From NCBI GenBank assembly GCA_016712025.1, contig JADJRW010000012.1:95941-159940 (forward strand): a stretch of 64,000 bases of DNA. Reading direction: 5' to 3'. Source of the stretch: Flavobacteriales bacterium (GTDB lineage: Bacteria; Bacteroidota; Bacteroidia; Flavobacteriales_F; PHOS-HE28). This document shows positions 56,001-62,000 of this stretch, piece after piece; the stretch's first letter is position 1, and each line of letters starts with the position of its first letter. Below the pieces are notes generated by a model that ran no database searches, had not been told where the DNA came from, and saw nothing but the letters and a program-made list of their open reading frames with translations. Made by a program: the position numbers and the translations under genes.

Positions 56001-59000
56001 CGCGGGTTGCACGATGGTGGCGCCAACGAGCGCCGAGCATCCGTTCGCATCCGTGATGGTGCAGAGGTAGTTGCCTGCGCCCAATCCCGTCGCGGTCGCG
56101 ATGTTCTGCGCCGGGGTGCTGTTCCAGACGTAGGAGTAAGGTGCGGTACCGAGGGTCGCGGTCACGGTAGCGCTGCCGGTGGCGTAGCCGAAGCAATCCA
56201 CATCGGTGCTGGCGATGAGCGATGCGCTCAACGATCCTGCGGGCGCGGTGATGGTGGCGTCCACTGCGGTGGTGCAACCGTTGGCGTCGGTGATCGTGCA
56301 GGTCCATGTGCCCGCACCGAGGTTGGTCGCCGTGGCGGTCGTTTGTGCGGGCGCGGTGTTCCAGCTATACGTGTAAGGCAATGCGCCGCCATTGGCGTTC
56401 ACGGCGGCGCTGCCGGTGTTCCCGCCGCAGGCCACATTGGTTTGCCCGCTGATCGAAGCGTTCAAGGCGGCCACGGGTTGTGCGATCTGCACCGAGGCGT
56501 TCGCAGCGCATCCGTTCGCATCCGTGATGGTCACGGTGTAAGTGCCCGAAGGGAGGTTGGCGGCAGCGTTAGCCGATTGAACAGGCGCGGTGTTCCAGTT
56601 GATGCCATAAGGCGCCGTACCACCGGTCACGTCGACCGTGGCATCGCCGGTGGCGTTGCCGAAGCAAGCAACATCGCTGTGTGCGCTGATCGCCGCGCTC
56701 AACACGGCGGACGGCTGCGCGATCGCAGCAGTTACTTGCGCACTGCATCCGTTCGCATCCACAATGGTGCAGGTCCAGACGCCTGCGAGCAGGTTCGTTG
56801 CGGTGGCTGTGCTCTGCACAGGCGAAGTGTTCCAACTGATGCCATAGGGAATTGTTCCACCGGAGATGTCCACGGCGGCGCTTCCCGTGCTGTTGCCGAA
56901 GCAGAGCACGTCGATGATACCTGTGATCGACGCGGCCAACGATCCCGCCGGGGCGGTAATGGTGGCACTAGTCGTCGTGGTGCAGCCGCTGGCATCGGTA
57001 ATGGTGCAGGTATAAGTGCCCGCGCCCAAATTGCTCGCCGTGGCGTTGGTCTGGATGGGAGCGGTGTTCCAACTGTACGATAGGGGAGTTCAGCCGGTCC
57101 ACCCTTGCGACGCGGGAGGCGGAGCCGCGTTGCCATGGTCACCTCGGCCCGTTCGCGTCGGATGATGCGGTGAAGTTCCCGGCGGGCAGATCGCTCGCCG
57201 TCTCGTTGGTCTGAACAGGCGAGCTGTTCCAACTATAGAGATACGGCGCAGTTCCGCCGACCACATCCACCGTCGCGCTACCCGAGCTGTTGCCGAAGCA
57301 GAGCACATCCGTGCTGCCGCTCACCGAAGCGCTCAAAGACGCTGCGGGCTCGGATCACGCCCCACAGACGTGCTGCATCCATTGGCATCGGGATGATGCA
57401 GGGAGGTACCCGCGAACAGGTTGACAGCCGTGGCCGTTTAGCGCTGGGAAGTGTTCCATGCGTACTGGTAAGGTCCGGTGCCGCCGCTCGCGTTCGCGGT
57501 GGCGCTGCCCGTGCTGTTGCCGTGGCAGAGCACGTTCGTCTGTGCGCTTACGCTCGCCGTTAGCGCGGCCAGCGGCTGAATGATCACAACGTTCTGTTGC
57601 GCAGTGCATCCGTTGGCATCGGTCGCGGTCACGGTCCAGGTACCTGCGGTGAGGCCTGCAGCGTTCGGTGATGCTTGCGCAGGGACGGTGTTCCAACTGT
57701 AGCCGATGGGGCTACTCCGCCCGTCGCGTTGGACGTGGCCGCTCCCGTCGCGTTGCTGAAGCAGAGCACCTGGCTGGTGACGCTGGCCGTGAACGCGATG
57801 GCTGAAGGTTCCGCCAACGTGATGCTCTGAGTAGCGCCGCATCCGTTCGCGTCCGAGACCGTGAGATCGTAGGTTCCCGCGCTCAGCGTACTCAAGTCCT
57901 CGTTGTTGCTGCTGAACCCGCTCGGACCGGTCCACCCGATGCTGAGCGGTGCCGTGCCGCCGGTGATGGTGGCATCGATGCTTCCATTGCTGCCGCCGTT
58001 ACAGGTGATGTTAAAGCCATTGCCCATGTCCGCGCTGGTCAGCCCGAGCACGAAGGGTTGCGGAGCGTTCAACGTGAGCACCTGGGAGGTCGCGCATCCG
58101 TTGTCGTCGGTCACTACGAACGTGTAGGTGCCCGCTTCCAATCCGCTGATGTCGATCGCGCTGTTCGTATAAGCGTTCGGCCCCGTCCATGCATAGGTGT
58201 ACGGGGGCGTCGCGCCGTTCACGGTCATATCGATGCTGCCGTTCGCTCCTCCGGCACAACTCACTTGCACCCCACCGGTGTAGCTGCTCGTAATGCCGCT
58301 CACGGTGAAGAGCCCGGGTTGGTTCACGTTCCACGTGCTGGTGTGCGTGCATCCGTTCGCATCGGTCACGATCAGTTGATACACGCCGGCTTGGAGCGAG
58401 GACACGTCCTGCGCTCCCGCCGTGAAACCGTTCGGGCCGGTCCACGCATAGGAATAGGTGCCCGTACCACCGGTCACTGTAGCGTTCACCGCACCATCGT
58501 TCGCGCCTTGGCAGGCGGCAGGGGTCACCACGGCGGTTACCCCGAGCGCAGCTGCGGGTTGCGTGATGGTCACGTTCGCGCCGGGGCTCCAAGTCGGGGG
58601 GGGGGGGCGGGGGGGGGGGCCGGCGGGGGGGGGGGGGGGGCGGGGCCGGGGGGGGGCGCGGGGCGGCCGCCCCCGGGGGGGGGGGGGGGGGGCGGGGCCC
58701 CCGCCCGCGCCCGCGGGGGGGCCCCCCGGGGGGGGCCCCGGCGCGGCGCGGGGGGGGGCGGCGGCCGGGGGGGGGGGGAGGGGGGGCGGCGGGGGGGGGG
58801 GGGGGCGCGCCCGCCGGCGCCGGGCGGCCGGGGGCGGCGGGGGGGGGGCGGGGGGGGGGGGCGGCGGGGGGGGGGCCGGGGCCGGCCGCCCGCCCCGCGC
58901 GGGGCGGCCGCCCGGCCGGGGGGGGGGGGGGGGGCGCCGCCCGCGCCCGCGGGGGGGCCCCGCCCGGGCGCCGGCGGGCGCGGGGGGGCGCGCGGGGGGG

Positions 59001-62000
59001 GGGCCCCGGGCCGCCGGCGGGGGGCGACGTTGGGGGGGGGGGGGGGGGGGGGGGGGGGGGGGGGGGGGGGGGGGGGGGGGGCGCGGGGGGCCCGTTGGGG
59101 GGGGGGGGGGGGGGGGGGGGGGGGGGGGGGGGGGGGGTCGTGAGCAACCGTTCGCATCCGTGAACGGCAGCTGCCGGGGGCAAGTTGCTCGCGGTCGCAG
59201 TGGTCTGCACGGGGCTGTTCCAGCTGAGGTACGAAGCGGTTCCACCGCTCACGTTCACCGTCGCACTGCCCGTGCTGTTCCAGCAGAGCACGTTGTGTGC
59301 CGCTGCTGATCGCGCTAAGCACCGCCGGTTGCGTGATGGTCCGATGTGCGCCGTGGTGCAGCCGTTCGCGTCGGTGATGGTGCAGGTGTAGTTCCCGGCC
59401 GGCAGGTTGATCGCGCTCGCCGTGTTCTGCACCGGGCTGCTGTTCCAACTGTAGCCGTAGGGGCTTGTTCCTCCGTTCACGCTCACTGTGGCCGCGCCGG
59501 TCGTGTTACCGAAGCAGAGGACGTTCGTGCTGCTCGCGATGATCGCGCTGAGCGGAGCGCCCGGCTGTGTGATGGTCACACTTGCGCTCGTGGTGCATCC
59601 GTGCGCGTCGGTCACCACGCAGGTCCATGTGCCAGCAGGCAAATTGGTCGCGGTGGATGAGGTCTGTACAGGGCTCGTGTTCCAACTGAAGGAGTACGCG
59701 GTGGTTCCTCCGCTCACGCTCACGGTGGCACTTCCCGTTCCCCCGTTGCAACTGATGTTGGTCTGCGACGCGATGGAAGCACTGAGCAGCGTAGGCTGCG
59801 TCACTGTCCAGCTTTGGATCGATTCGCAGTCGTTCGCATCGCGCAACCACAACGTGTAGGTGCCGGCCACCAGCCCGCTGAGATCTTCATTGCTCGACGT
59901 GAAACCACCAGGACCCGTCCAGGAGTACTCGTAAGGAGGCGTTGCTCCGCTCGCGGTGATCGCGATCGCACCGTTCGCTTCGCCGAAGCAGTTCACGTTC
60001 GTAATGCTGCCGACAACCGCCAGAGCGGAAGGATCTGCCAATGTGAAGGGCCGCACAAGGGTGCAGCCGTTCGCGTCGGTTACGGTCACTTGGTATGTGC
60101 CTGCGACAAGTCCGCCGCTAGGGAAATCTTGGTTGGTGCTGTTGAAGCCGTTCGGACCTGTCCAAGCATAGCCGTAGCCACCCACGCCACCGGTCACGTT
60201 GAGGTCGATACTTCCGGTGTTATCGCCCGCGCACAGCGGGTTGCTGGAACTGGAGGTCAGCGCCATCGCGACCACAGGACCATTGATGGTCACGTTGACC
60301 GTAGCTGCGTTCGGACAACCATTGTTATCCGCGACGGTAGCGATGTAACTGCCTGCGGCCAGCCCGGACGCGACCAGACCGGTTTGCACTGGCACGGTGT
60401 TCCAAGAGATGCTGTACGCTCCGCTGCCACCCGTCACCGAGAGCGTGGCACTTCCAGCGAACGAACCGAAGCAGGTCTCATCGATCGCGCTCAGCAAGTT
60501 CGCCTGCAATGCCGCCGCAGGTTGGGTGATCGTGATGTTGCGTGTGAGGCTGCATCCGTTGGCGTCCGTTACCACTACGGTGTAGTTGCCAGCGGTCAGG
60601 TTGATCGCGGTCGCGGTGGTTTGCACCGGGCTCGTGTTCCAACTGTAGCTCAAGGGAGCCGTTCCTCCGGAAGCGGTCACGGTAGCGCTGCCTGTGTTCG
60701 CTCCATAGCAGAGCACGTTGCTGCTCGCGCTGATGTTCGCGGTCAATGCGCTCGTGGGTTGCGTGATCGTCACGTTCACCGTTGTGCTGCACAGATTCAC
60801 ATCGCGCACGGTGCAGATGTAGTTCCCTGCGGGCAGGTTGCTCGCTGTGGCGGTGTTCTGCGCGGGCGTGGTGTTCCACAGATAGGTATAGGGTCCGGTT
60901 CCGCCGCTGGCGGTTACCGTCGTGCTGCCGGTGTTCTGCCCGAAGCAGCCCACGTTGGTTTGTGTGAAGAGCGATGCGCTGAGCCCGCTCGCGGGTTGGG
61001 TGATGGTCACGTTGCGCGTGGTGCTGCAACCGTTCGCATCGAGCACCGTGGCCGTCCAGGTACCAGCGGGCAAATTGGTGGCACTGGTACCGTTCTGTGC
61101 GGGCGTGGTGTTCCAACTCGTCGTGAAGGGTGCGGTTCCACCGCTGATGGAAATGGCGGCGCTTCCAGTCGTGTTGCCGAAACAGAGCACGTTGGTTTGT
61201 GCGGTGAGCGAAGTGCTCAAGGCAGCGGTCGGACCACCGATCGTCACGTTCGCGGTGGCGGGGCAGTTGTAGCCATCGGTCACGGTCACGGTCCAGGTGC
61301 CTGGCAGCAAAGGGTTCGCCGTTGCGGTGTTCTGCACCGGGCTCGTGTTCCAAATGAAATTATAGGGGGGCACACCACCTGACGGTGTTACGGTCGCACT
61401 TCCCAAGCCATCGCCGAAGCAGGCAACGGGAGCGCTCGTATTGATCGTGGCCATCACTTGGGTCGCCTCGATCAATGTGCTGTTGGCCGAAGCCGCGCAG
61501 CCGTTCGCATCGGTCACGTTCAATGTATAGCTACCCACGCTCAGGCCGCTGACGTCGGGCACCGTGTTGCTGTAGCCGTTCGGTCCGGACCAGATGGTCG
61601 AGTAGGGACCAGTGCCGCCGGAAACCGTAGCGTCGATGGCGCCATCGCTGCCACCGAAACAGCTCAAGTTCTGACCGAAGGCGAGGATGGTCGGGGAAAG
61701 CGAAACACCGAGGACAGAGGGTGCGGTAAGGGTGAAGCTCTGGCTGCGGGTGCAACCGGCATCCGTCACGGTGACGGTGTATGTGCCAGGAGCAAGACCG
61801 GAGATGTCCTGAGAGCTCGCTGTGAAACCGTTCGGACCGGTCCACGCATAGGCGTAGGAGGATAAGCCTCCCGCATGGCTCAGATTGATCGCTCCATTGG
61901 TGTTCCCATTGCACAGGGGATCGGTCTTCACGGCGCTCAAGGTCAGGTTGCTCACGCGCACGGTGCGGTTGGCGGCGCGGGAACACGAGCCATCCGTGAT

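Follow-up and report, generated by a model that had tools for sequence, protein, structure and literature searches.

The closest described system to the gene considered here is SprB of Flavobacterium johnsoniae, a mobile gliding adhesin (PMC12635249, PMC9870892). SprB and related gliding adhesins of the type IX secretion system (T9SS) contain SprB repeats, end in a type B sorting domain and are encoded just upstream of a PorP/SprF gene. The same features are found in a giant adhesin gene on the minus strand of the stretch analyzed here, a window of 64,000 nucleotides (nt) of contig JADJRW010000012.1, and the predicted architecture places the gene in the SprB class of gliding-motility adhesins. 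It differs from SprB of F. johnsoniae in having an N-terminal choice-of-anchor L domain, and in belonging to an uncultured Flavobacteriales lineage of about 60% GC. Within the gene is a tract of 543 nt composed almost entirely of G and C. This tract is almost certainly the product of a base-calling or consensus failure in the assembly, and not a biological sequence.

Other known systems resemble the tract in part. Phase-variable homopolymeric tracts (contingency loci) also have a G or C homopolymer inside a surface adhesin gene. Known tracts of this kind are roughly 7-20 nt long and their position is conserved among relatives, whereas the runs here are 41-50 nt long, are embedded in 450 nt more of G/C-only sequence, belong to a tract that is absent from orthologues, and have no length that would restore the gene, which carries frameshifts elsewhere. 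In the poly-G tails of two-color instruments (NextSeq, NovaSeq) missing signal is written as G (PMC6129281), and the tract likewise ends in pure G runs; it differs in being 543 nt long and inside a contig instead of a read tail, in its misfit to one-channel recoding, and in the deletions of its flank. Unpolished long-read drafts of nanopore type show, in tandem repeats, the deletion-dominated errors seen here (PMC8486125), together with frameshifts in single-copy essential genes, patchy errors concentrated in the tandem-repeat gene and garbling that stays colinear over hundreds of bases. Total loss of A/T calls with a default G, on the other hand, is not a failure that we could find described for that technology.

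Composition of the tract and its absence from orthologous adhesins

49990..63329, minus strand: giant SprB-repeat T9SS adhesin gene, host of the tract, present as several open reading frames (ORFs) as assembled (domain matches)
58577..58594, plus strand: left edge of the bad block (inspection by eye only)
58595..59137, plus strand: G/C-only tract (base counts, run lengths)
59027..59137, plus strand: stutter block, consisting of GACGTT, G50, CGCGGGGGGCCCGTT and G41
58577..59142, minus strand: interval between …GGTTGCT (end of the DANGC core) and AACGTGACC (NVT), 566 nt here and 11 nt (CGACGACGGCC) in three orthologues
59138..59351, minus strand: degraded flank adjoining the tract, with recognizable but frameshifted SprB sequence

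The tract (58595-59137 on the plus strand) contains 401 G, 136 C, four T and two A. Its six A/T bases are at 58779, 59027, 59030-31 and 59095-96, and it has G runs of 50 nt (59032-59081) and 41 nt (59097-59137); the recount agrees with an earlier note on this DNA. Outside the tract, no G/C-only run in the window exceeds 18 nt and no homopolymer exceeds 8 nt. The 1-kb bin with the tract has a GC fraction of 0.78, compared with about 0.60 for the window. The tract, G-rich on the plus strand, is C-rich and spells poly-Pro in the sense of the host gene, which lies on the minus strand. All six frames are open over it, which gives rise to ORFs of P/A/R/G only and of G/R/A only; these had been pointed out before and are seen in the ORF list.

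The last 110 nt of the tract hold two (A)CGTT remnants, each followed by a giant G run. The remnants match the unit-boundary motif CACGTT, a real copy of which is at 58571-58576. Judged by eye only, the left edge CGCGCCGGGGCTCCAAGTC resembles a degraded GGCCGTCGTCGAGCAACCGTTC, the core expected at that phase, and 58577-58594 (…GCTCCAAGTC) is similar to a degraded core GAGCAACCGTTC.

Orthologues were sought by scanning genome contigs and metagenome contigs with the non-repetitive N-terminal 470 residues of the adhesin. Three orthologous contigs from two lineages were found, 82-86% identical to the window in DNA over the gene: a Flavobacteriales metagenome-assembled genome (MAG) (L060, JADJCS010000005), a metagenome contig from the Joint Genome Institute (JGI) with 99.6% identity to L060 (L082), and a MAG of another study that is 94% identical to L060 (L004). 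Another close contig (L081) is too short to reach the site of the tract. No independent assembly of the same population was found in the genome and metagenome collections, the closest sequences being those at 82-86% DNA identity. Exact-protein look-ups with four ORFs of the window (PorP/SprF, the 1772-aa ORF, SecY and a pepN-like piece) matched no recorded protein.

Window positions 59137 and 58583 fall on one single position in all three orthologous contigs. The DANGC-encoding cores on either side of the tract, at ~58348 and ~59143, are 795 nt apart, as the earlier note had it, whereas the corresponding spacing in the orthologues is 240 nt. Since both edges share one orthologue position and the core spacing differs in this way, the tract amounts to 555 nt (185 codons) of net inserted sequence compared with two sister lineages. 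The comparison with orthologous adhesins that the earlier note had called for shows ordinary repeat sequence at the site, the 11 nt CGACGACGGCC within a 240-nt core spacing. The unit geometry proposed there also holds: three units lie between cores 58349 and 59144, two of them garbled, where the orthologues have one.

Among 160 related loci, which total 2.41 Mb, all G/C-only runs are shorter than 24 nt and G or C homopolymers reach at most 10 nt. An 18-nt A run at L060 8480, about 1.5 kb upstream of that contig's adhesin gene, is the longest homopolymer in the first 80 of the loci (1.43 Mb), the portion in which A/T runs were counted.

Identity to the sister lineages varies along the gene. The stretches 59352-59800 and 56400-56499 are 98-100% identical to L060, and partly to L004, against a gene average of 82-86%, and on the tract's other side from 59352-59800 identity to the sister lineage falls at once to ~80%. 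These stretches could reflect gene conversion between populations, or a chimeric join at the tract of reads from two co-occurring populations.

The flank at 59138-59351 (214 nt) is degraded. It lacks 25 orthologue bases, with ~94% identity at the bases that align, and eight gaps are visible, of 1, 3, 2, 3, 3, 3, 1 and 7 nt. The deletions shift the frame and remove conserved residues. When the ~12-kb alignment to L060 and L004 was examined in 100-nt bins, unbalanced indels were almost nil save in this flank and in 57100-57450.

One reading of the insertion is that it is real, an in-frame spacer of 185 codons for Pro, Ala, Arg and Gly only, inserted in one SprB unit. Extended Pro-rich linkers occur in surface proteins, which speaks for such a spacer, and the 555 nt keep DANGC and NVTITQP in frame, so that ORF 57629-59245 reads …TDANGCSR-(Pro-rich)-TWSPGANVTITQP…. 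The spacer is nevertheless absent from the three orthologous contigs of two lineages, the gene is frameshifted anyway in the 214 nt upstream (59138-59351), and nothing like the G50 and G41 runs is found in 2.4 Mb of relatives.

The codons of the tract are also unlike those of the gene. In the intact parts of the adhesin, GC at the three codon positions is 0.51/0.58/0.75, and G/C-only codons make up 18.7%, which for 181 in a row gives p ~1e-132. All four Pro codons are used there (CCG 67, CCC 59, CCT 28, CCA 17). In the tract, 179 of the 188 codons are G/C-only and 91 are CCC, as against a gene with four Pro codons and 25% A/T at third positions. A natural low-complexity linker with the codon usage of its gene (GC3 0.75, A/T at synonymous positions) would not have this composition. 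The natural Gly/Arg/Pro-rich tail of ribosomal protein S3 (34192-34401) provides an internal control: at 69% GC, it has no G/C-only run longer than 14 nt. These features make the spacer very improbable.

Residual repeat sequence within the tract

58598..59024, plus strand: two internal copies at a lag of ~241 nt (self-alignment)
58604..58968, plus strand: part of the tract colinear with ~1.5 real SprB units (best alignment, to L060 15635-15275)

The two halves of the tract align with one another at a lag of ~241 nt, which is the length of a SprB unit, giving copies at ~58598-58796 and ~58839-59024. The half-to-half score is 91, compared with 70.1 ± 6.8 for shuffles that preserve run lengths, two of 500 of which reach 91. 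With stricter scoring it is 59, compared with 38.6 ± 5.9, and none of 500 shuffles reaches 59. Ungapped autocorrelation of the tract is suggestive only. Tandem Repeats Finder, run on the tract, returned only low-complexity periods (1, 6, 22, 46, 57 and 75) and did not report the 241-nt lag.

In recoding tests, real sequence was turned into two letters by several rules and then aligned with the tract. Earlier tests of this type against the window's own repeats gave weak or equivocal signals. Against those repeats the rule that keeps C and writes A, T and G as G reached z = 4.5 in the plus orientation, whereas eleven other combinations of rule and orientation remained below z = 1.5. A clear signal was obtained only once the shuffles preserved run lengths and the clean orthologous gene served as template. 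Against the L060 gene, in the same orientation, keeping C and writing the rest as G scored 77.8, compared with 41.1 ± 5.3 for the best of run-shuffled tracts (maximum of 100, 56.6), and the opposite orientation scored no higher than shuffles.

The best alignment begins one base from a DANGC core, the phase expected from the left flank, and the second-best template, L060 14182-13821, consists of the units immediately beside the site. In the best alignment the 99 real C positions are written as C 73 times, as G 25 times and as A once. G is written for 107 of 122 real G, 51 of 57 real A and 64 of 78 real T. When A/T were scored neutrally, T had no significant bias to C.

Two other rules were tried against L060 and rejected. 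The rule for a loss confined to the green channel (A to C, T to G) scored no higher than shuffles. Transition hypermutation (A to G, T to C), which had been suspected by eye, scored 62.6, below the 77.8 of the rule above; its score is intermediate because it has three of its four rules in common with that rule.

The tract is not random. It consists of about two SprB units, left as a recoded shadow that keeps phase with the flanks, and of a stutter of G runs. Our initial view of a pure junk insertion inside one unit was dropped, because the insert itself is about two garbled units in phase. The shadow also bears on the spacer discussed above: what the tract recodes is repeat DNA on the non-coding strand, and no selection on a linker would yield that.

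That the tract derives from repeat units in which G has taken the place of A and T could instead be taken to favor a real hypermutable element, either a homopolymeric switch prone to form G-quadruplexes or two units that underwent directed A/T to G hypermutation. From the sequence, long G runs would slip and could form quadruplexes. The runs, however, are 41-50 nt long and have none like them in relatives. At the same site the three orthologues have CGACGACGGCC and no run, rather than a tract of variable length, and no single tract length restores the frame, since the gene has independent frameshifts at other sites (59138-59351, 57100-57450 and its last kilobase). The adhesin is thus broken at several other places, and plain indel errors occur in the enolase and EF-G genes of the same contig. 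We know of no mutator that turns both A and T into G on one strand, which also counts against this element. Its probability is vanishingly small. For the broader proposition that the tract is present in the DNA, with two SprB units converted on one strand (A, T to G) by a directed process to give a 185-codon in-frame Pro-rich insert whose G41-G50 runs would act as a slippage- or quadruplex-prone switch, the probability is extremely low. The earlier note had entertained a real Pro-rich spacer or hypermutable switch; only the in-frame length of the insertion favors this, and all else is against it.

Origin of the block

The earlier note's preferred explanation, an artifact from failed consensus or base calls over tandem repeats, is borne out by the absence of the tract from orthologues, by the degraded flank, by frameshifted essential genes and by the degraded SprB copy in phase. 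The artifact is probably of long-read type. The most likely source of the block is one long read, or very few, probably of nanopore type and affected by a transient signal fault, the sequencing technology of the contig being itself something that we infer. Raw nanopore errors are mostly deletions and are worse at high GC (PMC8486125). Indels in single-copy genes, as would be expected of a long-read draft, are found over the contig in the genes for enolase, EF-G, a pepN-like aminopeptidase and a BT2802-family protein.

The following course of events would account for the block. A segment of 775 nt (58577-59351) within 240-nt tandem repeats would have been left uncorrected, probably as the contribution of one or very few poor reads. 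About two units would have been written with only C recognized, A, T, G and a quarter of the Cs becoming G, and two stalls would have been written as G50 and G41. The last 214 nt would mark the return to readable yet deletion-rich sequence, with good sequence afterwards. Short-read or consensus polishing would be powerless where nothing aligns to the block and the repeats draw ambiguous alignments; the block would thus stay unrepaired because other reads cannot align to it inside the tandem repeat. If the block was read from a physical molecule, that molecule has two extra SprB units; if it is assembly stutter, there are none. The molecule may truly carry two more SprB units than the sister lineages.

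Several observations weigh against this account. The net insertion is exactly 555 nt, a multiple of three, and DANGC and NVTITQP stay in one frame. Chance would keep the frame in one case out of three. Of the eight deletions in 59138-59351, four are exactly 3 nt, a pattern that random read error does not predict. We know of no documented nanopore failure mode that writes A and T as G while keeping C, and a literature search for a long-read failure mode giving G/C-only sequence found nothing specific. A default G is, moreover, the hallmark of two-color Illumina chemistry (PMC6129281).

This last point leads to a different artifact, in which two-color Illumina reads with signal loss were pulled into the repeat by a gap filler, by local reassembly or by polishing of a long-read draft. 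In two-color chemistry C is the base with a red signal only and the lack of signal is written as G, so that a fading signal leads to miscalls of T and C as G (PMC6129281). The tract has its default G on one strand only, as expected for a read strand (A, T and G become G in the plus orientation only). C is the sole other survivor, A and T being written as G, and pure G runs stand at the 3' end on the plus strand. Poly-G of this origin is confined to read tails of at most 150-300 nt, whereas the tract lies inside a 64-kb window, and both its length (543 nt) and its colinear garbling (365 nt) exceed such reads. A loss limited to the green channel would turn A into C and T into G, and this recoding does not rise above shuffles. 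The garbling is stochastic, with C kept at only 74% of positions, and this should block the overlap of different reads. The adjoining 214 nt carry deletion errors foreign to Illumina reads. An origin in Illumina reads is therefore unlikely. No-signal G calls had been suggested in the earlier note, and the default G and the surviving C agree with this; the tract is, however, longer than any Illumina read, and it does not fit a recoding that turns A into C and T into G.

The host gene and the quality of the contig

48839..49738, minus strand: gene for a PorP/SprF family T9SS membrane protein, directly downstream of the adhesin (TIGR03519)
57100..57450, minus strand: second deletion-rich, frameshifted patch in the adhesin, followed by a stretch without an orthologue counterpart

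The adhesin gene starts at 63329 and ends at ~49990 on the minus strand, and its product has ~4,400 residues. A choice-of-anchor L domain is matched at the N-terminus (E = 4e-73), and PF13573 finds at least 37 SprB repeats, as 12, 3 and 22 matched stretches in three ORF pieces (E = 2.6e-105, 3.5e-31 and 4.7e-177). The C-terminus, hand-spliced over the frameshift near 50000-50090, matches the T9SS type B sorting domain TIGR04131 (E = 1.3e-14, 54.1 bits, cut-off 35). For the downstream ORF, 48839-49738 on the minus strand, the match to TIGR03519 reaches 265 bits (cut-off 90.55; E = 8.5e-79).

Frameshifts in the adhesin are not restricted to the flank of the tract. The last kilobase (50000-51000, minus strand) has at least six frame switches, and the sorting domain is split over two frames near 50000-50090. 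Past ~57160 (stretch 56834-57149) the window sequence diverges from both orthologues. From 58583 to 50764 the window is ~626 nt longer than the orthologues, and this extra sequence is either a difference in the number of units or a second misassembly.

Similar lesions occur in other genes of the window. The enolase gene (minus strand) is in two frames, 18978-19592 (profile positions 1-158) and 18305-19108 (159-420), as is that of EF-G (minus strand), at 39487-40602 (6-334) and 38495-39820 (334-689). By eye, and by comparison with consensus motifs, we take the enolase lesion near 19108 to be a 1-nt insertion and the EF-G lesion near 39588 to be a 1-nt deletion. The pepN-like aminopeptidase gene (42805-45283, minus strand) is also in two frames, and its split coincides with a C7 run at 44053-44059. 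The BT2802-family gene (45343-46936, plus strand) is split between two frames, and carA (19606-20813, minus strand) lacks the first 103 profile positions. Because two essential genes, those for enolase and EF-G, cannot both be pseudogenes, the contig as a whole is a draft prone to indels, from a Flavobacteriales MAG.

The ribosomal protein operon from S10 to SecY (27806-38480, minus strand), upstream of which lies the EF-G gene, seems largely intact when its ORF translations are inspected by eye, and provides an ordinary housekeeping context. In the ribosomal protein S3 gene (34189-34992, minus strand) the N-terminal 30 residues seem out of frame, which may be another indel.

The present analysis adds to the earlier note that the orthologues lack the two extra units, that the flank is degraded, that the whole contig is of draft quality and that the tract is a recoded shadow of the repeats. 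The tract has no biological significance. As it stands the contig is unfit for gene calling, with spurious P/A/R/G-only and G/R/A-only ORFs on both strands and an adhesin of ~4,400 residues in pieces. G/C-only runs above ~25 nt are absent from 2.4 Mb of related sequence and so provide an easy screen for artifacts of this kind. Such tracts can nevertheless keep recoverable information, here the phase of the repeats and about three quarters of the C positions, and what was recovered suggests two additional SprB units at this site compared with the sister lineages.

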